A program made the translations under genes and the position numbers. Shown here one piece after another: positions 12,183 to 18,916 of a DNA stretch of 51,479 nt. Source of the stretch: a virus. Taxonomy: Duplodnaviria; Heunggongvirae; Uroviricota; Caudoviricetes. The notes below the pieces were generated by a model. It saw only the letters and a program-made list of their open reading frames with translations. It was not told the origin of the DNA and searched no databases. Position 1 is the first letter of the stretch; each line of letters starts with the position of its first letter. The stretch is from positions 1 to 51,479 of the IMG/VR virus record IMGVR_UViG_3300045988_007046; one strand, written 5' to 3'.

Positions 12183-13598
12183 ATGAGCGAATTATTTAAA
12201 CATGCGCACCTTCATGCAGGTCGAACTGAAAATGGTGCTGTAAACCATACTTCATCAATGTCTGCTCTTGTAGACTTTTACAAAGCTGCTGGTTCAAGCC
12301 GTAGCAACGTAGAAATCTTACCAGACCTGTTCTACAAAGCTTTGCGTGAGGATGTTGATGTTGCAGTTCGTATTTTGCTTCATATGCGAGATGTACGAGA
12401 AGGTATGGGTGAGCGTAAAGCCTTCAGAACTGTTTTACTTCAAGCGATTGAAGACAAAGTTTTAGAGCCTACGCAGGTTCTTCGCATTATGGATAAGATT
12501 GCAGAACTTGGTCGTTTTGATGACTTCAAAATCTTCGTAGGTACTCGTTTCGAGACAGATGCCTTCAAACATCTAGAAGCAGCATTACTAGACCCTGCAA
12601 CAGCAGGTTTGGCGGCTAAGTGGTTACCACGAGTCAAACCACGTCATAAGCAGTTTGTAAAACGTTTCTGCAAGTTTGCCAACTTGAGTGAGAAAGAGTA
12701 CCGCACACTGTTGTCTGCACTATCTGATACAGTTGAGCAAAAAATCTCTGCTAATGAGTTTGGTAAGATTGACTACAGTAAGATTCCTTCACTTGCTGCT
12801 GCACGTTACCAAAAACTGTTTAACCGCAAAGATGGAGAACGCTACAAAGCTTACATCGAGTCCTTATCAAAGGGTGAGACTAAGATTAATGCTGGTGCTG
12901 TTTACCCATACGATGTAATTAAATCTGTTAAGCATGGTAATGCAGATGTTGCTAATGAGCAGTGGAAAGCACTACCAAACTGGATGGCAGAGGGTGAAAA
13001 CATCTTGTGTATGTCTGATGTTTCAAGCTCAATGTCTTGGGTGAATTTTGGTTCAATTACTGCTCTTGATATTGGTGTTTCACTTGCATTGTATGTAGCA
13101 GAACGTAATACAGGTTGCTTTAAGAATGAGTTGATGGTTTATTCAACAAACCCTCACTTCATCGAACTGAGTGGTGATTTACGAAACCGTCATCGTCAGG
13201 TGATGCGACACGTTGAATATGGCTCAACTAACTTACAAGCAGCTTTTGACCGTATTCTTGAAACAGGTAAAAGAAACAACTTGACTCAGAAAGATATGCC
13301 AAGTAAGCTTATCATCTTCTCCGATATGGAGTTCAATCAGGTTGATGGAGCTAACGGTCGTACAAACTTTGAAGCAATTCGTAGTAAGTACAAAAAAGCT
13401 GGATACGAAATGCCTCAACTGGTATTCTGGTACTTAGCAAACCGTAATGGTACTTGCGAAGTGTCTGTTAAGGATAACGGTGTAGCAATGGTATCTGGTT
13501 TTTCTCCAGCTACTTTAAAAGCTCTGCTTGGTGGTGAGAAGTTTGACCCAATCAGCGTAATGCTCAAAGCAGTAATGATTGACCGTTATATCTGGTAA
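12183..13598 (+). CDS. vWA-domain protein, possibly Ro60/TROVE-like RNA-binding protein
   Basis: 471 aa; MIDAS-like D-x-S-x-S (MSDVSSSMSW) followed by vWA-like strands (ELMVYS, GSTNLQAAF, KLIIFSDMEF, GVAMVSGFS) whose order resembles the Ro60 C-terminal vWA domain; helical N-terminal region. Confidence 0.4.
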   Translation: MSELFKHAHLHAGRTENGAVNHTSSMSALVDFYKAAGSSRSNVEILPDLFYKALREDVDVAVRILLHMRDVREGMGERKAFRTVLLQAIEDKVLEPTQVLRIMDKIAELGRFDDFKIFVGTRFETDAFKHLEAALLDPATAGLAAKWLPRVKPRHKQFVKRFCKFANLSEKEYRTLLSALSDTVEQKISANEFGKIDYSKIPSLAAARYQKLFNRKDGERYKAYIESLSKGETKINAGAVYPYDVIKSVKHGNADVANEQWKALPNWMAEGENILCMSDVSSSMSWVNFGSITALDIGVSLALYVAERNTGCFKNELMVYSTNPHFIELSGDLRNRHRQVMRHVEYGSTNLQAAFDRILETGKRNNLTQKDMPSKLIIFSDMEFNQVDGANGRTNFEAIRSKYKKAGYEMPQLVFWYLANRNGTCEVSVKDNGVAMVSGFSPATLKALLGGEKFDPISVMLKAVMIDRYIW

Positions 13599-13763: not shown

Positions 13764-13840
13764 CTCTGTTTAGCTCAGCTTGGTAGAGCGTTCCGTTTGG
13801 GGCGGTAAGGCCGGAGGTTCAAGTCCTCCAACAGAGACCA
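13764..13840 (+). tRNA. tRNA-Pro (anticodon TGG)
   Basis: Hand-folded: acceptor CTCTGTT/AACAGAG with C1-G72, T-arm GGAGG-TTCAAGT-CCTCC, anticodon loop TTTGGGG, CCA encoded. Confidence 0.65.
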
Positions 13841-13847
13841 AATTAAT

Positions 13848-13925
13848 GTTCCAGTAGACAAAATGGTAAAGTCACCACTCTTTCAAAGTGGATATCTGAG
13901 GGTTCAAATCCCTTCTGGAACGCCA
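13848..13925 (+). tRNA. tRNA-Glu (anticodon TTC)
   Basis: Acceptor GTTCCAG/CTGGAAC, anticodon arm CCACT-CTTTCAA-AGTGG, T-loop TTCAAAT, CCA encoded. Confidence 0.75.
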
Positions 13926-13930
13926 GTTTT

Positions 13931-14004
13931 GACAGAAGACCAATTACAGCAAACTTAATCTACTCATCTGACACGAAATCGGACAAAGAAGATATTTGGT
14001 CTGG
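13931..14004 (+). ncRNA. structured spacer element E1 (CAGAAGACC...GGTCTGG family)
   Basis: 5' GACAGAAGACCAA pairs with 3' TTGGTCTGG; conserved internal ACAGCAA. Confidence 0.35.
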
Positions 14005-14015
14005 TCATTGAGAAT

Positions 14016-14092
14016 TGCGGGTATAGAGAAAGGGCGTCTCACATGTCTCATTAGCATGGTATCGGCAGGTTCGACTCCTGCACCCGCCTCCA
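14016..14092 (+). tRNA. tRNA with CAT anticodon (Met or Ile2), with a 1-72 mismatch
   Basis: Acceptor TGCGGGT/ACCCGCC (U1 opposite C72), anticodon arm CATGT-CTCATTA-GCATG, T-arm GCAGG-TTCGACT-CCTGC, CCA encoded. Confidence 0.55.
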
Positions 14093-14097
14093 ATTTT

Positions 14098-14158
14098 GCA
14101 GAAGACCGTATTCAGCAACAAAATACTTTTTGCGGATAAAAGAAAAAACACGGTCTGG
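14098..14158 (+). ncRNA. structured spacer element E2 (CAGAAGACC...GGTCTGG family)
   Basis: 5' GCAGAAGACCGT pairs with 3' ACGGTCTGG; internal TTCAGCAA. Confidence 0.35.
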
Positions 14159-14169
14159 CAATGTATTAA

Positions 14170-14246
14170 GGTTAGGAAGCACATAAGGTATGTGCGGTCG
14201 CCTGTTAAGCGAATGGCACAGGGTTCGAATCCCTGACTAACCGCCA
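14170..14246 (+). tRNA. tRNA-Asn (anticodon GTT)
   Basis: Acceptor GGTTAGG/ACTAACC, D-arm GCAC/GTGC, anticodon loop CTGTTAA, T-arm CAGGG-TTCGAAT-CCCTG, CCA encoded. Confidence 0.7.
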
Positions 14247-14255
14247 AATTTAAAT

Positions 14256-14343
14256 GTGTCGTTATCCCGTAGATGGTAGCGGTGGGGACTGTAAATCCCT
14301 TGTCATTGAGACTCGGTAGGTTCGACTCCTACACGACACACCA
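14256..14343 (+). tRNA. tRNA-Tyr (anticodon GTA), long variable arm
   Basis: Acceptor GTGTCGT/ACGACAC, anticodon arm GGGGA-CTGTAAA-TCCCT, long variable arm, T-arm GTAGG-TTCGACT-CCTAC, CCA encoded. Confidence 0.75.
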
Positions 14344-14348
14344 ATAAA

Positions 14349-14426
14349 GGTTATGTAGTTTAATTTGGTTAAAATACTCCCCTGTCACGGGAGATGATGA
14401 GGGTTCAAATCCCTTCGTAACCGCCA
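14349..14426 (+). tRNA. tRNA-Asp (anticodon GTC)
   Basis: Acceptor GGTTATG/CGTAACC, anticodon arm CTCCC-CTGTCAC-GGGAG, T-loop TTCAAAT, CCA encoded. Confidence 0.75.
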
Positions 14427-14432
14427 ATTTTG

Positions 14433-14478
14433 AGAGGGCTATTTAGCCCCTCCCTTAAAGAGTTCTTACGAGTATTCT
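14433..14478 (+). promoter_or_regulatory. paired hairpins in a tRNA spacer (possible processing or termination signal)
   Basis: GGGCT-ATTT-AGCCC hairpin followed by CCCTTAAAGA...TCTTTAAGGG inverted repeat enclosing GTTCTTACGAG. Confidence 0.4.
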
Positions 14479-14487
14479 TTAAGGGAG

Positions 14488-14561
14488 CAGAAGACCAAAT
14501 ACAGCAAGAATGTATGAAATTTCAAGCCAATTTAATTTTGAAAATTTAAAACTTGGTCTGG
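14488..14561 (+). ncRNA. structured spacer element E3 (CAGAAGACC...GGTCTGG family)
   Basis: 5' CAGAAGACCAAA pairs with 3' ACTTGGTCTGG; internal ACAGCAA. Confidence 0.35.
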
Positions 14562-14574
14562 CTCAACAAATTTA

Positions 14575-14706
14575 CAGAAGACCGTTTACAGCAAAACTTA
14601 AACAATCTATTTCTCCGGTAAAGAAAAGGCGAAGGTTCGATTCCTTCACTCGGCAGATGTCGAGTTGGTGTAATGGTAGCACTTAAGATGATAAACAACG
14701 GTCTGG
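14575..14706 (+). ncRNA. structured element E4: CAGAAGACC...GGTCTGG closing helix enclosing a tRNA-like module (Y-RNA/YrlA-like candidate)
   Basis: Closing helix AGACCGTT (14579-14586) with AACGGTCT; inside: perfect T-arm GAAGG-TTCGATT-CCTTC (14631-14647), 7-bp hairpin ACTCGGC-AGAT-GTCGAGT (14648-14665), D-arm-like GTGT-AATGGTA-GCAC (14668-14682). Confidence 0.4.
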
Positions 14707-14707
14707 T

Positions 14708-14851
14708 AATTATCTTTGTAGATAAGTTATTAAGCTTACCTGTGAGTATGCGACCACAAAGGGTGAAAGGGTAAATTCTAGATTTAAACCCAAAAAGGCA
14801 CATCGCTACAGACCTTAAGCAAGTCTGGGTAGCTTATCTACAAAGATAATT
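14708..14851 (+). repeat. 19-bp perfect inverted repeat enclosing a ~106-nt segment
   Basis: AATTATCTTTGTAGATAAG (14708-14726) is the exact reverse complement of CTTATCTACAAAGATAATT (14833-14851); interior holds a CAGAC...GTCTG hairpin. Confidence 0.6.
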
Positions 14852-14855
14852 TAAT

Positions 14856-14931
14856 GGAAGTGTAGCAGAATGGTGATGCGGCAGACTTTTAATCTGACAG
14901 GCGATGGGTTCGAATCCCTCCACTTCTACCA
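14856..14931 (+). tRNA. tRNA-Lys (anticodon TTT)
   Basis: Acceptor GGAAGTG/CACTTCT with G1-U72, anticodon loop CTTTTAA, T-region ATGGG-TTCGAAT-CCCTC (only 3 clean T-stem pairs), CCA encoded. Confidence 0.6.
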
Positions 14932-14936
14932 AAAAT

Positions 14937-15013
14937 GGTTCAGTCGCAGATAAGGTAATGCAAGGGTTTCATAAGCCCTATGAATGTGGGTTCGATTCCC
15001 ACCTGAACCTCCA
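14937..15013 (+). tRNA. tRNA with CAT anticodon (Met or Ile2)
   Basis: Acceptor GGTTCAG/CTGAACC, anticodon arm AGGGT-TTCATAA-GCCCT, T-arm GTGGG-TTCGATT-CCCAC, CCA encoded. Confidence 0.7.
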
Positions 15014-15014
15014 A

Positions 15015-15090
15015 GCTGGTATAGTTAAGAAGGTTATAACACTCCCCTGATAAGGGAACATCGGTGGTTCGATTCCACCTACCAGTACCA
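15015..15090 (+). tRNA. tRNA-Ile (anticodon GAT)
   Basis: Acceptor GCTGGTA/TACCAGT, anticodon loop CTGATAA, T-arm GGTGG-TTCGATT-CCACC, CCA encoded; starts 1 nt after the preceding tRNA. Confidence 0.7.
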
Positions 15091-15097
15091 ATTTCAA

Positions 15098-15136
15098 TAA
15101 AGTTGTTGACATTGAGATGTGACTACTTTATAGTAA
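15098..15136 (+). promoter_or_regulatory. sigma70-like promoter candidate inside the tRNA array
   Basis: AATAAAGTTGTTGACA with TTGACA at 15106-15111, exact 17-nt spacer, TATAGT at 15129-15134. Confidence 0.55.
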
Positions 15137-15294
15137 CCTTAGTTTTCGTTGCGTAGCGTCTATTTTGCAAATTTAAAATAAATGCAAACGACAATGTTTT
15201 TCTGGCAGTAGCTTGATAGGCTAAACACCAGTGAGGTCTTCCAATCCCTCATCAAAGAATTTGGCGTACTCGCCCACGGTATGATTAATAAGGT

Positions 15295-15336
15295 GGGCAT
15301 CTTTAAGGGCTTTCTAAGAGAGTCTTTAAAGATAAT
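15295..15336 (+). promoter_or_regulatory. spacer hairpin (ATCTTTAA...TTAAAGAT inverted repeat)
   Basis: 8-bp inverted repeat enclosing GGGCTTTCTAAGAGAGTC; related to other spacer hairpins carrying TTCTTA/CTAAGA motifs. Confidence 0.35.
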
Positions 15337-15338
15337 TA

Positions 15339-15420
15339 CGGGGCGTATCTCAGCGGTCTTCTAAACCGCCGTTAACCGAGTAAGTGGAGTATGCGGGTTC
15401 GAGTCCTGCCGCCTCGACCA
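15339..15420 (+). ncRNA. atypical tRNA-like element (possible aberrant tRNA-Arg TCT or pseudo-tRNA)
   Basis: Good acceptor CGGGGCG/CGCCTCG, T-arm GCGGG-TTCGAGT-CCTGC and CCA, but the only anticodon-like hairpin GCGGT-CTTCTAA-ACCGC lies 7 nt after the acceptor (no room for a D-arm) and is followed by a 23-nt extra region. Confidence 0.3.
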
Positions 15421-15563
15421 ATTTAGTTAGCAGATTACTTAGACGACCTAAGCGTGTCTTCCTGTAAGGAGGTGGTCTGTATCTCATGTTTTCCAGAACA
15501 TGTAAATAATCTGAGAAGGGGCTTTACAGTGTTGCGAAAATACGGTAAGCTTCGAATTACAGT

Positions 15564-15646
15564 ATGGGACGATGTTAAGACTCTAAGGCATGAGCAACGG
15601 CCTCCAAAACCGTTTCAAAGGGGTTCAACTCCTCCGTCCCATGCCA
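15564..15646 (+). tRNA. tRNA-Trp-like (anticodon CCA) with extended D region
   Basis: Exact acceptor ATGGGAC/GTCCCAT, anticodon loop CTCCAAA (identical to canonical Trp loop), T-loop TTCAACT, CCA encoded; about 7 extra nt between acceptor and anticodon stem. Confidence 0.4.
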
Positions 15647-15659
15647 AAGTCTTATTAGG

Positions 15660-15750
15660 GGTAGGTAGCGGCTAATGGTAGCCAAACTGTCTTGAAAACA
15701 GTTGCCACTGTAGAGATACGGTGAGGGTTCGACTCCTTTACTTACCGCCT
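15660..15750 (+). tRNA. tRNA-Ser (anticodon TGA), long variable arm
   Basis: Acceptor GGTAGGT/ACTTACC, anticodon arm ACTGT-CTTGAAA-ACAGT, long variable arm, T-arm GAGGG-TTCGACT-CCTTT; 3' CCA only partly encoded. Confidence 0.65.
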
Positions 15751-15900
15751 AATAAGATTTACACCGTCCATGCTTGCTCGCATTTTCGGTTTATCCCTCG
15801 TGTATTGTCGTACACTGATAAAGCACCTAGTAGGTGTCACGGAGAAGAGATAATATCAAGCTCTCCAAAGGTTCTAGTCACCGGATTAAACAAGACTATG

Positions 15901-15925
15901 CAAAGACCTATTTAGGTCTTTTTAG
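15901..15925 (+). terminator. terminator-like hairpin inside the tRNA array
   Basis: AAAGACC-TATTT-AGGTCTTT followed by TTTTA. Confidence 0.4.
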
Positions 15926-16003
15926 AGGGCTTCTAAGGTTATTAGTCGCTTGTTGTGGAACCTTGTTGCTCAGGTTCTTAGAAGTTCTCTAAAAAGATTT
16001 AAT

Positions 16004-16082
16004 GGGAGATTGACGGCAACTTGGTAGACCTATCTCGCTTAGAACGAGATGCTTGAGGGTTCGAATCCCTTGTCTCCTACCA
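16004..16082 (+). tRNA. tRNA with Leu anticodon TAG but short variable arm (atypical)
   Basis: Acceptor GGGAGAT/GTCTCCT, Leu-like D-loop CAACTTGGTAGAC, anticodon arm ATCTCG-CTTAGAA-CGAGAT, only ~4-nt variable region, T-arm GAGGG-TTCGAAT-CCCTT, A73, CCA encoded. Confidence 0.5.
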
Positions 16083-16089
16083 AATTAAT

Positions 16090-16165
16090 GCAGGTGTAGC
16101 AAAATGGTTATGCGGCTGACTCTTAATCAGTAAGACGATGGGTTCAATTCCCTCCACCTGTACCA
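16090..16165 (+). tRNA. tRNA-Lys (anticodon CTT)
   Basis: Acceptor GCAGGTG/CACCTGT, anticodon arm GCTGA-CTCTTAA-TCAGT, T-region ATGGG-TTCAATT-CCCTC (same pattern as Lys-TTT), CCA encoded. Confidence 0.65.
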
Positions 16166-16171
16166 GACATT

Positions 16172-16247
16172 GGGGATGTAGTTTACATGGTTAAAACATA
16201 AGTTTTGCAAACTTAAGTACAGGGTTCAATTCCCTGCTTCTCCACCA
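16172..16247 (+). tRNA. tRNA-Ala (anticodon TGC)
   Basis: G3-U70 pair present; D-arm GTTT/AAAC, anticodon arm TAAGT-TTTGCAA-ACTTA, T-arm CAGGG-TTCAATT-CCCTG, CCA encoded. Confidence 0.75.
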
Positions 16248-16253
16248 ATTAGT

Positions 16254-16328
16254 GCATCCATAGTTTAAACGGGAAAATTACAGTCTTCCAAACTGAGGTT
16301 GAGGGTTCGATTCCCTCTGGATGCTCCA
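16254..16328 (+). tRNA. tRNA-Gly (anticodon TCC)
   Basis: Exact acceptor GCATCCA/TGGATGC, anticodon loop CTTCCAA, T-arm GAGGG-TTCGATT-CCCTC, CCA encoded. Confidence 0.7.
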
Positions 16329-16335
16329 AATTAAT

Positions 16336-16411
16336 GCTCCTATCGTATAATTGGCTATTACGGTTGCCTTGTAAGCAACTTATCAGGGTTCGAATCCTTG
16401 TGGGAGCACCA
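16336..16411 (+). tRNA. tRNA-Thr (anticodon TGT)
   Basis: Acceptor GCTCCTA/TGGGAGC, anticodon arm GTTGC-CTTGTAA-GCAAC, T-arm CAGGG-TTCGAAT-CCTTG, CCA encoded. Confidence 0.75.
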
Positions 16412-16414
16412 ATT

Positions 16415-16502
16415 CAGAGGTCAAGTGAAAGACCGCTGGTGTCAACTGAAGACCGTAACAAATTCCACGGAGTTGAGTTAGCGGCACAACTTCAGACCTC
16501 TT
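16415..16502 (+). ncRNA. structured spacer element E5 (AGAGGTC...GACCTCT closing helix, internal GAAGACC motifs)
   Basis: CAGAGGTC at 16415-16422 pairs with GACCTCT at 16496-16502; interior has GAAAGACCG and TGAAGACCG plus CCGCT/AGCGG complementarity. Confidence 0.3.
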
Positions 16503-16506
16503 TCAT

Positions 16507-16581
16507 GCTCGCTTAGTTTATATGGTAAAACATCACCCTTACAAGATGAAGAAAAAGGTTCAAGTCCTTTAGTGAGTACCA
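16507..16581 (+). tRNA. tRNA-Val (anticodon TAC)
   Basis: Acceptor GCTCGCT/AGTGAGT (with G-U pairs), D-arm GTTT/AAAC, anticodon loop CTTACAA, T-arm AAAGG-TTCAAGT-CCTTT, CCA encoded. Confidence 0.65.
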
Positions 16582-16582
16582 T

Positions 16583-16660
16583 GTTCCAGTATCCCAATTG
16601 GCAGAGGATGCAAGCTCAAACCTTGTATTAGTGACGGTTCGAATCCGTCTTGGAACACCA
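16583..16660 (+). tRNA. tRNA with Leu anticodon CAA but short variable arm (atypical)
   Basis: Acceptor GTTCCAG/TTGGAAC, D-loop CCAATTGGCAGAG, anticodon arm GCAAG-CTCAAAC-CTTGT, short variable region, T-arm GACGG-TTCGAAT-CCGTC, A73, CCA encoded. Confidence 0.5.
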
Positions 16661-16665
16661 ATTTT

Positions 16666-16741
16666 GCAGGATTAGTTCAAATGGATAGAGCAACAGTCTA
16701 CGAAGCTGTTAATAGGGGTTCGAATCCCTTATCCTGCGCCA
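16666..16741 (+). tRNA. tRNA-Arg (anticodon ACG)
   Basis: Exact acceptor GCAGGAT/ATCCTGC, anticodon arm ACAGT-CTACGAA-GCTGT, T-arm AGGGG-TTCGAAT-CCCTT, CCA encoded. Confidence 0.7.
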
Positions 16742-16758
16742 GATAAAAAGGTGATACT

Positions 16759-17001
16759 ATGCAAACATTAACAGTAGTTGAACATGAAAACTGTGAGAAT
16801 ATTGAGTTTGTCAGGGTCATTGGTGTTGAACACCACATTTTCTTAAAAGTAGGGTACTTATGTGACCCCGCTAGAGTAGAAAGATTTATACGTGATTGTT
16901 TTGGTGGTAGACAGCTAAAGAGTGTTATTTTTGAGACAGTTTTACCAGAAGGTTTAGAAACGAATAATAACATTTATCTCCTTACAAGGATTAGACGATG
17001 A
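16759..17001 (+). CDS. hypothetical protein embedded in the tRNA array
   Basis: 80-aa ORF starting 18 nt after tRNA-Arg; 4-nt overlap with the next ORF. Confidence 0.4.
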   Translation: MQTLTVVEHENCENIEFVRVIGVEHHIFLKVGYLCDPARVERFIRDCFGGRQLKSVIFETVLPEGLETNNNIYLLTRIRR

Positions 17002-17555
17002 GATATTTAAAATATGCTTCATGGATTTTCCTAGCTTTGCTAGAACCATTAGCAGCAACCTTAGCAGTTATCTTAGCACCTTTCGTAGTTCCATTTTACA
17101 GTGAGAAGAAAGGCCACTTACCTTTCGGATTTAGATGGATGGAGACATATGACAACCCAATTGATGGTGACGAAGGTCATATCGAACGATGGGCTAAGAT
17201 TAGAAAGATTGGTAAGCTGGGTGTCTACATGCAGAGAGTCGGATGGCTCTGGAGAAACAAAGCTTATAACTTCTCTTACCATGTATTAGGAAGAGATGTA
17301 AAAGATGTTACTAAGTGGAAAGGTAATATCAACGTAAGTTCTGACCCTGAAGATAATCAGACAGGTTATCTCCTAATGTGGAACAGTAATGCTTGGGGAT
17401 TATTCGCTTTTATCCCATCAATTAAAGTCTTTGGTAAACAGTTTTACTGGAGAATTTATATTGGATGGAAACTAAAAAGTGTTGTCCCAGAAGAAAGAGC
17501 ATTCTCAAGGGAAAGAGTTATGTTGGCATTCTTTATTCATCCACTGAGAAAGTAA
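16998..17555 (+). CDS. hypothetical membrane protein embedded in the tRNA array
   Basis: 185 aa; N-terminal hydrophobic segment WIFLALLEPLAATLAVILAPFVV; Trp-rich. Confidence 0.5.
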   Translation: MRYLKYASWIFLALLEPLAATLAVILAPFVVPFYSEKKGHLPFGFRWMETYDNPIDGDEGHIERWAKIRKIGKLGVYMQRVGWLWRNKAYNFSYHVLGRDVKDVTKWKGNINVSSDPEDNQTGYLLMWNSNAWGLFAFIPSIKVFGKQFYWRIYIGWKLKSVVPEERAFSRERVMLAFFIHPLRK

Positions 17556-17563
17556 AGATTTAA

Positions 17564-17639
17564 AGGGGATTAGTTTACAAGGTTAAAACCTCGGTCTTTG
17601 AAATCGAAGAAGTTGGTTCAATTCCAACATCCCCCGCCA
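17564..17639 (+). tRNA. tRNA-Gln (anticodon TTG)
   Basis: Acceptor AGGGGAT/ATCCCCC (weak 1-72 pair), D-arm GTTT/AAAC, anticodon arm TCGGT-CTTTGAA-ATCGA, T-arm GTTGG-TTCAATT-CCAAC, CCA encoded. Confidence 0.65.
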
Positions 17640-17641
17640 AT

Positions 17642-17720
17642 GCTCCATTACTCCAATTGGCAGAGAGGCCAGACTTAAAATCTGTGTTATGTATCGGTTC
17701 GAATCCGATATGGAGTACCA
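17642..17720 (+). tRNA. tRNA with Leu anticodon TAA but short variable arm (atypical)
   Basis: Acceptor GCTCCAT/ATGGAGT, D-loop CCAATTGGCAGAG (shared with 16583-16660), anticodon loop CTTAAAA, ~7-nt variable region, T-arm ATCGG-TTCGAAT-CCGAT, A73, CCA encoded. Confidence 0.5.
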
Positions 17721-17725
17721 AATTT

Positions 17726-17801
17726 AGCGGTATAGCATAACTGGCAATGCAACAGTCTCTGAAGCTGTCCTATTAAGGTTCAAATCCTTATGCCGCTGCC
17801 A
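17726..17801 (+). tRNA. tRNA-Gln (anticodon CTG)
   Basis: Acceptor AGCGGTA/TGCCGCT, D-arm GCAT/ATGC, anticodon arm ACAGT-CTCTGAA-GCTGT, T-arm TAAGG-TTCAAAT-CCTTA, CCA encoded. Confidence 0.7.
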
Positions 17802-17802
17802 C

Positions 17803-17830
17803 TTCTAAGGGTTCTTACGAGAGTCCTTAA
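17803..17830 (+). promoter_or_regulatory. spacer hairpin carrying the GTTCTTACGAG motif
   Basis: CTAAGG-GTTCTTACGAGAGT-CCTTAA; same loop motif as the hairpin at 14445-14478. Confidence 0.4.
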
Positions 17831-17832
17831 AT

Positions 17833-17908
17833 GTGGCCTTATCATAAATGGTAATGACCCATGCTGTGAACATGGTCTATACGGGTTCAAATCCCGTAGG
17901 TCACCCCA
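17833..17908 (+). tRNA. tRNA-His (anticodon GTG)
   Basis: Acceptor GTGGCCT/AGGTCAC, D-arm TCAT/ATGA, anticodon arm CCATG-CTGTGAA-CATGG, T-arm ACGGG-TTCAAAT-CCCGT, CCA encoded. Confidence 0.75.
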
Positions 17909-17913
17909 ATTTA

Positions 17914-17990
17914 TAGTCCAAGTAGCTTATATGGTTAAAGCGCGTGTCTGAAAAACATGAGAAGAGGGTTCAAATCCCACTGGACTACCA
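17914..17990 (+). tRNA. tRNA-Phe (anticodon GAA)
   Basis: Exact acceptor TAGTCCA/TGGACTA, anticodon arm CGTGT-CTGAAAA-ACATG, T-loop TTCAAAT; 3' CCA not cleanly encoded. Confidence 0.6.
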
Positions 17991-18006
17991 ATTTCAAAGG
18001 TGCTTA

Positions 18007-18741
18007 ATGAAAGAGATGACAGAACAAGGTAAGGAGATTTTTAATCTCTTAAAAACCGGTAAAGGGTTTTCTAACCCACTTATTACTGGTGCAGCAGTTC
18101 TCGGTGGAACCGTAGCTGCCTCTACATCACTTGTAAGCTCTATTAGTTCTGTAACAGACCCTACAATGCAGGAGAAACTTGTTGCTGCTGGACTTACAAC
18201 AGTCCTTCTAAACAGCTTTACAACAAGCCTTACAAGCACTACAGCAACTACTAAGACCCTGACAGACTACGGTCAAAAGTCTATTGATGAGTTTTCATCA
18301 CGTATGCAGGTAGCAAAGGGATATTCCAATGTTATGAGTGCAGCAGGAGAACAAGTTGGTTGTACACCGTTCAGTGGTATTATGGGTGTTGCTACAGAAT
18401 ATGGTCAAAAAGCTATTGATACAATTAACAGTACACTAGAGAGTGTTAACGATGTATTAAGTGACTTACAAGACGCTATTGATGAGGGTCTTGATACTAT
18501 TTCTGATTTAGCTAATCAGGCTGTTAGTAAGATTAATGAAGGTATTTCAAAGATTACAGCTTATGCAGATGAAGTTGTGCAGATGATTGAAGAAGAAGCT
18601 GCCCTTATTGCAGAGTACCTTAAAACGAATATCAATGGGTTCTTAGCAGGTATCTTACCAGACTGGTTTGACGATGCCTGTAAAACTGGTGTAATTGACA
18701 CTATTGCAACACCAGAAATGAAGAACGCATTACAGAAATAA
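18007..18741 (+). CDS. hypothetical Ser/Thr-rich protein embedded in the tRNA array
   Basis: ORF track gives 17944-18741 but that start overlaps tRNA-Phe; first ATG clear of the tRNA is 18007 (MKEMTEQGKE), preceded by AAGGTG; hydrophobic/Ser-Thr-rich N-half, acidic helical C-half. Confidence 0.5.
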   Translation: MKEMTEQGKEIFNLLKTGKGFSNPLITGAAVLGGTVAASTSLVSSISSVTDPTMQEKLVAAGLTTVLLNSFTTSLTSTTATTKTLTDYGQKSIDEFSSRMQVAKGYSNVMSAAGEQVGCTPFSGIMGVATEYGQKAIDTINSTLESVNDVLSDLQDAIDEGLDTISDLANQAVSKINEGISKITAYADEVVQMIEEEAALIAEYLKTNINGFLAGILPDWFDDACKTGVIDTIATPEMKNALQK

Positions 18742-18743
18742 AT

Positions 18744-18836
18744 GGAAGATTAACCCTAAAAGGTAAGGGAGCAGTTTGCTAAACTGCCAGTAGCTGAGAA
18801 ATCGGTGTACCAGTTCAAGTCTGGTATCTTCCTCCA
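18744..18836 (+). tRNA. tRNA-Ser (anticodon GCT), long variable arm
   Basis: Exact acceptor GGAAGAT/ATCTTCC, anticodon arm GCAGT-TTGCTAA-ACTGC, long variable arm, T-arm ACCAG-TTCAAGT-CTGGT, CCA encoded. Confidence 0.75.
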
Positions 18837-18840
18837 ATTT

Positions 18841-18916
18841 GAATCCGTGACAGAAATGGCTATGTGCCTGTCTGCAAAACAGGTTTATAAGGGTTCGAGT
18901 CCCTTCGGATTCTCCA
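18841..18916 (+). tRNA. tRNA-Cys (anticodon GCA)
   Basis: Exact acceptor GAATCCG/CGGATTC, anticodon arm CCTGT-CTGCAAA-ACAGG, T-arm AAGGG-TTCGAGT-CCCTT, CCA encoded. Confidence 0.75.

Follow-up and report, generated by a model that had tools for sequence, protein, structure and literature searches.

Short-armed tRNA-Leu genes in the tRNA cluster of a Felix O1-like phage

Can tRNAs with leucine anticodons do without the long variable arm and still serve as leucine tRNAs? The question is raised by the viral record IMGVR_UViG_3300045988_007046 (Caudoviricetes), all 51,479 nucleotides of which were analysed and are referred to here as the window. An earlier note, made from the letters alone, had pointed to three tRNA genes with the anticodons TAG, CAA and TAA that appeared to lack the arm, and had considered either compact Leu-decoding tRNAs or tRNAs that are charged with something else. 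The window stems from a Felixounavirus (Felix O1-like; Ounavirinae), and its tRNA region is 99.8% identical to that of Escherichia phage vB_EcoM_ASO1A. The three genes lie in a large tRNA gene cluster:

13764-18916, + strand: tRNA gene cluster; 25 tRNAs called by ARAGORN, all on the + strand, including the three Leu genes
16004-16082, + strand: tRNA-Leu(UAG), 79 nt including CCA (ARAGORN, Rfam RF00005)
16583-16660, + strand: tRNA-Leu(CAA), 78 nt including CCA (ARAGORN, Rfam RF00005)
17642-17720, + strand: tRNA-Leu(UAA), 79 nt including CCA (ARAGORN, Rfam RF00005)

We consider it probable (roughly 0.75) that these are genuine Leu tRNAs on a class I scaffold, which the host's leucyl-tRNA synthetase (LeuRS) would charge and which would supplement the decoding of UUA, UUG and CUA. 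Leu(CAA) and Leu(UAA) are the confident cases, while the Leu(UAG) of this phage, with its damaged D-arm, may work poorly.

Three leucine tRNA genes with a class I cloverleaf

ARAGORN returned exactly the coordinates and anticodons that the earlier note had obtained by hand folding. Infernal agreed with ARAGORN on the anticodon positions, and neither program found a long arm. With the Rfam model RF00005, the genes score 47.5 bits (Leu(UAA)), 44.0 bits (Leu(CAA)) and 30.5 bits (Leu(UAG)), all above the gathering threshold of 29, and all three are placed on a class I cloverleaf with 1-3 bases inserted in the variable loop. Common to the three are an acceptor stem of 7 bp, a T-stem of 5 bp, an anticodon loop of 7 nt (CUUAGAA in Leu(UAG), CUCAAAC in Leu(CAA), CUUAAAA in Leu(UAA)), a T-loop of the type UUCRANU (UUCGAAU in every case), A73 and an encoded CCA. 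Segmentation of the genes with standard 5-bp anticodon and T stems leaves variable regions of 5 nt (UAG), 6 nt (CAA) and 7 nt (UAA). A class II tRNA has a variable region of more than 10 nt that forms a stem-loop, and none of the three genes has one. The lengths of 78-79 nt, the CCA ends, A73, the Leu-like D-loop motifs and the anticodon loops that had been read by hand are thus all present. Single-sequence minimum free energy folding is uninformative for tRNAs (z-scores of -0.5 to -1.8) and was not used as evidence.

We considered, and rejected, that a long arm had been overlooked or that the anticodon register was wrong. ARAGORN, Rfam with Infernal and two purpose-built covariance models (see below) agree on the register, and because the genes comprise only 78-79 nt including CCA, there is no room for a hidden arm. 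The cluster also provides internal controls, with arms apparent in the structures drawn by ARAGORN:

14256-14343, + strand: tRNA-Tyr(GUA), 88 nt, long variable arm
15660-15749, + strand: tRNA-Ser(UGA), 90 nt, long variable arm
18744-18836, + strand: tRNA-Ser(GCU), 93 nt, long variable arm

Since the tRNA-Tyr and both tRNAs-Ser show normal long arms, the short Leu arms are no artefact of the tRNA finder. Bacterial tyrosyl-tRNA synthetase (TyrRS) uses the long arm, and the tRNA-Tyr of the cluster is a control for the retention of class II architecture where the synthetase requires the arm.

In Leu(CAA), the 6-nt variable loop AUUAGU is combined with a 3-bp D-stem and C13.A22. Leu(UAA) has the 7-nt variable region GUUAUGU (6 nt with U44 bulged), G1.U72 and a C27.U43 mismatch. 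The D-loop of both is AAUUGGCAG. Leu(UAG) has the 5-nt variable loop UGCUU, together with G1.U72 and A73. The sequence of Leu(CAA) is 100% identical between Felixounavirus and Mooglevirus, with 160 records at 99% identity or more, and judged by this identity across two genera the gene is under purifying selection. Leu(UAA) of Mooglevirus Sf16 equals that of the window apart from one substitution. A pseudogene status of Leu(CAA) and Leu(UAA) was rejected in view of the cross-genus 100% identity and of their top scores with Leu models. Leu(CAA) and the tRNA-Glu(UUC) at 13848-13925 have the acceptor 5' strand GUUCCAG in common (3' strands UUGGAAC and CUGGAAC, respectively), a likeness that may come from duplication within the cluster or from shared processing constraints.

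Comparison with class II tRNA-Leu (E. coli leuZ, leuX, leuW and leuV/P/Q; phage T4) shows what has been kept and what has been lost. The anticodons UAA, CAA and UAG are alike, and the shared features are A73, U8-A14, A15-U48, the placement of G18G19, A20a, a 3-bp D-stem with unpaired 13.22 and the D-loop AAUUGGYAG; G1.U72 is found in leuZ also. In contrast, the variable region of 5-7 nt has no stem, whereas it is a 13-15 nt stem-loop in leuV/P/Q, leuZ, leuW and leuX of E. coli K-12. Among phages, the region comprises 15 nt in T4 and 13-14 nt in phage EmilieFrey. Further differences concern 13.22, which is C.A and not G.A or A.A, position 9, which is A (CAA and UAA genes) and not G, and the anticodon loop, with A37 and not G37 in Leu(UAG) and with C38 in Leu(CAA).

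The features that were kept are those that matter to LeuRS. A review of identity elements describes A73 as crucial for Leu identity in E. coli and the anticodon and the long arm as not required; it lists A73, A14, A15-U48, G18G19 and A20a as the Leu set, reports that armless constructs stay active, and names the size of the arm as the major identity element for seryl-tRNA synthetase (SerRS). A73, U8, A14 and A15 are present in all three phage genes, the variable region of each ends in U, and each has G18G19 at the Leu-type D-loop position and A20a. Going by the bases that are present, the T-loop should be able to make the contacts G18:U55, G19:C56 and U54:A58 with the D-loop.

For an assignment by the whole tRNA body, one covariance model was built from 64 viral short-arm Leu tRNAs (R1) and another from 63 long-arm bacterial ones (R2). 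Applied to the tRNA region of the window, R1 ranks Leu(CAA) first (72.5 bits) and Leu(UAA) second (72.1 bits), ahead of the best non-Leu tRNA, a tRNA-Glu with 57.5 bits. With R2, the order is Leu(UAA) (56.3 bits), Leu(CAA) (53.1 bits) and, as the best non-Leu tRNA, a tRNA-Met with 44.8 bits; the variable loops of the two Leu genes are aligned as an arm with the stem deleted. Judged by the sequence of their bodies, Leu(CAA) and Leu(UAA) are Leu tRNAs. Leu(UAG) is marked out solely by its anticodon, A73 and the D-loop motif. In a 2025 computational study of the tRNAs of phage Sf14, Leu had the top tRNAscan-SE isotype score for the homologues of all three genes (TAG 67.4, CAA 49.1, TAA 60.2).

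Selection on the fold is apparent from an alignment of the 64 non-redundant viral short-arm Leu tRNAs behind R1, all of 74 nt. It needs no gaps; no two of its sequences share 85% identity or more, and none shares 80% or more with the window genes. Of the cells of the class I cloverleaf, 98.8% are paired, compared to 58% after shuffling and 32-46% in slid controls. Compensatory change occurs in 19 of the 20 pairs (covariation score 1.08 vs 0.24). No variation is seen at U8, A14, A15, G18, G19, A20a, A22 and A73, and 63 of the 64 sequences have U48; in the larger set of 152 unique viral short-arm Leu sequences, A73 is found in 152 and U48 in 151. Covariation, expressed as mutual information, links position 13 to position 21 (0.99 bit) and to the mid-variable loop (0.60 bit), such that C13/G21 goes with a purine in the mid-variable loop and G13/U21 with a U. 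The CAA and UAA genes of the window are of the C13/G21 subtype. This covariation suggests a tertiary core that has been re-fitted, not a bare deletion.

Short-armed tRNA-Leu among phages and bacteria

The trait is not confined to the window. Clusters homologous to its tRNA cluster were found in 349 phage records, which mostly have three tRNA-Leu genes annotated; some carry the label "tRNA-OTHER". Short-arm Leu tRNAs occur in all three Ounavirinae genera sampled and also in T5-like Epseptimaviruses: Mooglevirus Sf16 has them at 77, 78 and 79 nt, Kolesnikvirus Panisse as Leu(caa) (77 nt), Leu(aag) (78 nt) and Leu(taa) (77 nt), Epseptimavirus Stitch as Leu(taa) (77 nt) and as an 81-nt Leu(tag) with a 9-nt loop, and Epseptimavirus TrudiRoth as Leu(tag) (77 nt). 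T4, EmilieFrey and T5 proper have long-arm Leu tRNAs. The short-arm Leu tRNAs of other phages (Sf16/Sf14, Panisse, Stitch, TrudiRoth and more than 150 in IMG/VR) have the same architecture and invariant positions as those of the window, and the Leu(CAA) of the window is identical to that of Sf16 and Moogle. They differ from the window genes in that most have exactly 5 variable nt, compared to 6 in the CAA and 7 in the UAA gene, and in the irregular D-arm of the window Leu(UAG). Stitch Leu(tag) resembles E. coli leuW with a trimmed arm, with the D-arms UGGCGAAAUUGGCAGACGCG and UGGCGAAAUUGGUAGACGCA, respectively, and the identical anticodon loop UUUAGGU, which points to an origin by deletion from a class II ancestor.

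A scan of IMG/VR, which includes prophage fragments, with a structural descriptor (D-loop, YAA anticodon loop, T-loop) that admitted short spacing only yielded, after filtering with ARAGORN, at least 161 short Leu tRNAs in at least 120 diverse contigs. Frequencies were estimated with a second, arm-neutral descriptor, the spacing of which admits both arm lengths, on the first 120 stretches per collection in scan order; this descriptor requires a Leu-like D-loop and YAA anticodons, and some tRNA-Lys that it picked up were removed via ARAGORN. Among the matched Leu(YAA) tRNAs, 30 were short and 81 long on viral contigs (27% short), compared to 6 short and 101 long in bacterial species representatives (5.6% short; 30/111 vs 6/107, Fisher p=1.7e-5). 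When all Leu tRNAs are counted, viral loci with at least five tRNAs have 36 short and 71 long ones (34% short), and viral loci with at most two tRNAs, which are likely host genes at prophage ends, have 3 short and 38 long ones (7% short). The earlier note had taken class II to be the normal form of tRNA-Leu in bacteria and phages alike. For phages this is only partly right: a quarter to a third or so of the Leu tRNAs on viral contigs are short-armed.

The length of the Leu arm is bimodal, with either 5 nt or 11-18 nt, and exactly 5 variable nt are found in 27 of the 30 short viral Leu tRNAs of the neutral sample. Long and short Leu tRNAs occur together in 18 viral loci. Ser and Tyr tRNAs in viral loci keep the arm: it is short in 48 of 168 Leu tRNAs, but in none of 43 Ser tRNAs (p=7e-6) and in 1 of 21 Tyr tRNAs. 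Arm loss is thus Leu-specific, and the compact Leu tRNA is a common phage trait that is not peculiar to the phage of the window.

The six short bacterial cases come mostly from Actinobacteria (Gordonia, Nocardia, Herbiconiux and an Actinomycetales metagenome-assembled genome). Five actinobacterial short-arm genes, from these four sources and one further genome, are single tRNA-Leu(UAA/CAA) genes with the D-arm AGCCCAAUUGGCAGAGGC that is also seen in many phage copies. Another of the six is an array of 29 tRNAs in a metagenome-assembled genome of Acidobacteriota (JANRKX010000072.1, around 80-2900), with four short-arm Leu tRNAs (76-78 nt) and, as in phages, with long-arm Ser and Tyr tRNAs; this array may be mobile or phage-derived.

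Little of this seems to have been remarked on. The paper on the Felix O1 genome gives lengths of 78, 78 and 79 nt for the same three Leu genes and does not comment on them, and the 2025 study of Sf14 tRNAs never uses the word "variable". We found no mention of armless Leu tRNAs in phages in the full-text literature that was searched (older subscription literature lay outside the reach of the search); the papers included those on the Felix O1 genome and the Sf14 tRNAs, van den Berg 2023, Mukai 2017, and papers on tRNA-dependent lysogeny and, as a review, on tRNAs in virulence. It is already known that class I-shaped Leu tRNAs exist (in animal mitochondria and in Streptomyces), that armless constructs can be charged, and that the genes have been in GenBank as tRNA-Leu since Felix O1. 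What appears to be new is that phage Leu tRNAs are often armless, that this is specific for Leu and enriched over bacteria, and that exactly the LeuRS identity set is preserved. The compact architecture also explains the occasional labels "pseudo" and "tRNA-OTHER" of annotation pipelines.

Probable charging by the host leucyl-tRNA synthetase

Our data suggest a model in which the leucyl-tRNA synthetase of the host would charge the three phage tRNAs with leucine during infection. LeuRS would recognise the discriminator A73 together with the form of elbow and core (U8-A14, A15-U48, G18G19, A20a), and neither the anticodon nor the long arm. Deletion of the arm would then be tolerated in tRNA-Leu only, because SerRS and bacterial TyrRS need the arm and LeuRS does not. 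Once charged, the phage tRNAs would boost the decoding of UUA, UUG and CUA, codons that are heavily used by the phage and belong to minor isoacceptors in E. coli. Charging by LeuRS, the efficiency of charging and the use of the three tRNAs by the ribosome are steps that we infer. No LeuRS gene was found within the window.

Codon usage fits this model. In the open reading frames of the window (39% GC), TTA accounts for 28.9%, TTG for 13.0% and CTA for 12.4% of the Leu codons, or 54% in total. In E. coli, about half of the leucines are encoded by CUG, and there are single genes for the UAA, CAA and UAG isoacceptors. The terminase and portal genes were compared with their Panisse orthologues, which are 66-69% identical. 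TTA, TTG and CTA sites of the window align to Leu codons of Panisse in 30 of 44 cases, 21 of these 30 being CTT, CTC or CTG, and CTT, CTC and CTG sites do so in 28 of 34 cases; non-Leu replacements are mostly I, V or M. As TTA, TTG and CTA interchange with other Leu codons in orthologues, the phage genome treats them as leucine.

There are precedents for leucine tRNAs without the long arm, each with its own differences. The type I tRNALeu(CAA) of Streptomyces coelicolor (PMC6614811) is likewise a natural tRNA whose variable loop is short and which has a Leu anticodon; it shares its compartment and a single LeuRS with long-arm tRNA-Leu, and the number of nucleotides in its variable loop affects charging. 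However, it is encoded by a chromosomal actinobacterial gene, its charging relies on the leucine-specific domain of the S. coelicolor enzyme (ScoLeuRS), and A73 is no identity element. The hosts of the window phage are enterobacteria, with a LeuRS that has none of the ScoLeuRS features, and the phage tRNAs keep A73 strictly; the two systems are likened by description. In animal mitochondria, tRNA-Leu(UUR/CUN) also has a class I shape, and Leu identity depends on A73 and A14 with no long arm, but there the LeuRS is a dedicated mitochondrial enzyme and the tRNA structure is degenerate and floppy, whereas the phage tRNAs have a canonical covarying cloverleaf and a standard D/T elbow.

A further parallel comes from engineered armless or minimal tRNALeu of E. 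coli and Aquifex aeolicus, which can be charged provided that they keep A73, U48 and the D/T tertiary contacts (Asahara 1993 and 1998, Larkin 2002 and Yao 2008, as represented in later summaries). The phage tRNAs conserve exactly that set. The engineered tRNAs are laboratory constructs of reduced efficiency (7.8% of kcat/Km for A. aeolicus tRNALeu without the variable arm), unlike the phage tRNAs, which are natural and widespread. The covariation between positions 13 and 21 and the variable loop suggests that the phage short-arm Leu core, in contrast to the engineered variants, has been optimised.

Several points weigh against charging by the host enzyme. First, EcLeuRS, the LeuRS of E. coli, gave no charging with type I tRNALeu(CAA) from S. 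coelicolor, a natural tRNA, and the enzyme is described as charging type II tRNALeu only (Fan et al., 2019, Nucleic Acids Research (NAR), PMC6614811). This failure need not transfer to the phage tRNAs, because the S. coelicolor system does not use A73, which the phage tRNAs keep strictly; it is nonetheless what chiefly keeps our confidence from being higher. Second, part of the binding energy in A. aeolicus comes from the arm: kcat/Km falls about 13-fold without it, the 7.8% that are left reflecting chiefly an effect on Km. In favour of charging, however, this activity persists when the arm is gone, whereas deletion of U48, which the phage tRNAs keep, abolishes charging. Third, aminoacylation, expression or ribosome data on short-arm phage Leu tRNAs were not found in the literature. 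The classical aminoacylation and suppressor data for T5 were rejected as proof of charging, since the Leu(UAG) of T5 proper is long-armed (85 nt, with a 13-nt variable region). Fourth, Leu(CAA) has C38, so that the A36A37A38 motif for i6A37 is absent. The remaining points concern Leu(UAG), which has A37 where the CUN-reading Leu tRNAs of E. coli have G37, and hence no m1G37 site. It lies just above the Rfam threshold (30.5 vs 29), in a shifted register, and scores at the level of a generic tRNA with the Leu models (R1 54.5 bits, rank 4 behind tRNA-Glu; R2 41.7 bits, rank 7). Finally, the gene is labelled "pseudo,tRNA-Leu(tag)" in GenBank for Ro111lw and "tRNA-OTHER" for Si3. The T5 record (NC_005859) contains notes on amber-suppressor conversion for each tRNA and lists several "tRNA-like stable RNAs" between tRNA genes. 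In its RNAX region, ARAGORN also reports a "Ser(act)" of 74 nt whose variable loop has 3 nt; this call is probably spurious or a tRNA-like RNA.

The peculiarities of Leu(UAG) raise the possibility, which we consider real but less than even, that the window copy is decaying or poorly functional and that only the CAA and UAA genes are functional. The gene departs from the norm in its D-arm: U8 G9 is followed by an extra base, between acceptor stem and D-arm, the D-stem reads C.U / G-C / G-C / C.A and thus has two Watson-Crick pairs only, 22 nt separate acceptor and anticodon stem (20-21 nt in relatives), and the D-loop AACUUGGUAG has one base extra in the alpha region. Rfam accommodates this by shifting the acceptor stem by one base, a register that was rejected because it would give a discriminator U followed by ACCA; the ARAGORN register was kept because it gives A73 and CCA as in all relatives. 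The low Rfam score, the ranks in the Leu models below non-Leu tRNAs and the two database labels are what one would expect of a decaying gene.

The Leu(UAG) locus of Ounavirinae is occupied by two allele families, and the comparison between them cuts both ways. Sf16 and wV8-type phages have the first, a short-arm form of canonical build (GCACCUA..., 77 nt), and its presence at the same locus in other Ounavirinae fits decay of the window copy. The second (GGGAGAU UGACGG..., 78-79 nt, with 21-22 nt instead of 20 between acceptor and anticodon stem) includes the window allele. Within this family the D-arm varies among close alleles, which also fits decay: the D-stem is a re-registered GGU/ACC in the 78-nt form, but two G-C pairs flanked by C.U and C.A in the form of the window. 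On the other hand, the anticodon stem shifts by compensated pairs (UCUCG/CGAGA to CCUCG/CGAGG to CCAUC/GUUGG), the 1:72 pair goes from G.U to G-C, and the anticodon loop, the T-arm, A73 and CCA are constant. The acceptor stem is likewise intact in the window allele. More than 200 records retain an allele of the second family, and 68 of these records reach 99% identity or more to the window allele, the 78-nt form has a Cove score of 52 and no pseudo flag in the Felix O1 paper, and CTA makes up 12% of Leu codons. We conclude that the window Leu(UAG) is probably functional and possibly impaired. Its closest outside relative is the Leu(UAG) of the T5-like phage TrudiRoth (about 76% identical), which suggests that Demerecviridae and Ounavirinae have exchanged Leu(UAG) genes and that an allele has been replaced within the cluster.

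If the phage tRNAs are charged by LeuRS, one may still ask why they lost the arm. One answer, which is compatible with LeuRS charging and concerns only the reason for the trait, is that the loss is adaptive and lets class I-shaped Leu tRNAs escape tRNA-targeting effectors that recognise class II, or the turnover of host tRNAs that phages induce. We consider this unlikely, although a number of observations are in line with it. Viral contigs are about 6-fold richer in short-arm Leu tRNAs than bacteria, and multi-tRNA clusters are richer in them than singletons; according to a preprint, the abortive-infection toxin AbiEii, like MenT3, probably has a preference for long-arm tRNAs of class II; and phage tRNAs are known to evade anticodon nucleases via changes in the loop. 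A37 is found in 34 of 45 short-arm viral Leu(NAG) tRNAs, compared to G37 in 5 of 5 long-arm bacterial ones, and the covariation of positions 13, 21 and the variable loop suggests a re-engineered core. However, no effector is known to hit tRNA-Leu via its arm in E. coli or Salmonella, the Ser and Tyr tRNAs of the same phages keep the arm and would still be exposed to a class II-directed effector, and long and short Leu tRNAs coexist in the 18 viral loci mentioned above. Relaxed constraint, deletion bias and genome compaction would suffice, without any role of defence. The most far-reaching version, a large natural phage family of class I Leu tRNAs that ordinary bacterial LeuRS, that of E. coli included, charges efficiently and that lost the arm to escape effectors, is unlikely as a whole. 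If it were true, it would overturn the view that tRNALeu has a long arm everywhere except in animal mitochondria, and tRNA architecture would join anticodon-loop sequence in the arms race between phages and hosts. Whether tRNA architecture serves as a target in the conflict between phages and hosts can be tested.

It is quite improbable that the genes encode stable tRNA-shaped RNAs that serve mainly as decoys, sponges or primers outside translation. Phage tRNAs are reported to neutralise defences (T5 tRNA-Lys against PARIS, tRNA-Tyr against retrons), but in the known counter-defence cases the tRNA works by staying usable in translation. Moreover, the elements for charging, EF-Tu and the ribosome (A73, CCA, the 7/5 acceptor/T branch and the anticodon loops) are strictly conserved, and the match to codon usage also speaks for translation.

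Least probable of all is the second possibility of the earlier note, that the tRNAs carry a non-Leu amino acid or are promiscuously mischarged and so recode or blur UUA, UUG and CUA: a class I shape is unusual in Leu tRNAs, EcLeuRS did not accept one natural type I tRNALeu and A73 is common to several other isotypes, but the anticodons UAA, CAA and UAG lack the determinants of anticodon-reading synthetases (by established rules and the identity review), G3.U70 is absent from all three genes, the D-loop and core bear the Leu signature, the CAA and UAA genes are at the top in Leu models, TTA, TTG and CTA sites match Leu codons, mostly CTN, in orthologues with I, V and M as the other replacements, and misreading of 54% of the Leu codons would harm the whole proteome. 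Identity elements, Leu models, the Sf14 scores and codon use all favour the other possibility of that note, compact Leu-decoding tRNAs, and charging with something else has found no support.

Charging of short-armed Leu tRNAs by the host LeuRS would matter beyond this phage. The 2019 NAR paper (PMC6614811) treats the lone Streptomyces type I tRNALeu as a rare exception, and here coliphages that rely on the LeuRS of E. coli or Salmonella carry three short-arm Leu tRNAs under strong purifying selection. The contrast between Leu on the one hand and Ser and Tyr on the other provides a natural experiment on which tRNA features each class II synthetase can spare, and the phage tRNAs are ready natural substrates for deciding whether EcLeuRS charges type I tRNALeu. 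Because LeuRS ignores the anticodon, they are possible compact Leu tRNA scaffolds for suppressor and genetic-code engineering. Should charging be poor, the puzzle would be why hundreds of phages keep these genes.

Other elements of the tRNA cluster

Protein genes are interleaved with the tRNA cluster or flank it:

12183-13598, + strand: DUF2828+DUF7788 protein, 471 aa
16998-17555, + strand: DUF7338 protein, 185 aa, hydrophobic N-terminus
17944-18741, + strand: DUF7217 protein, 265 aa

None of these three has a known function or resembles an aminoacyl-tRNA synthetase.

Two further elements of the cluster are tRNA-like. At 15339-15417 (+ strand), Rfam alone reports a tRNA (31.7 bits; ARAGORN is silent). 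Its acceptor stem of 7 bp is good, its anticodon arm is of the Arg(UCU) kind (loop CUUCUAA), its T-arm is normal and it has a 3' ACCA. Only about 7 nt are found at the position of the D-arm, and the distance from anticodon stem to T-stem is 23 nt. In its anticodon arm, T-arm and 3' end, the element aligns to the tRNA-Arg(TCT) of Sf16 and Panisse, which is normal there, and it could be a D-armless variant or a decayed gene. A weaker match at 15566-15641 (+ strand; R1 17.0 bits, R2 12.3 bits, Rfam tRNA-Sec 23 bits) may be what is left of a tRNA; it is situated between this Arg-like element and tRNA-Ser(UGA).

Felixounavirus tRNA-cluster sequence, at 94-97% identity, also turns up in two records with the names Staphylococcus phage SA1 (GU169904) and Campylobacter phage A132 (MG065664), which suggests that these entries are mislabelled or contaminated.

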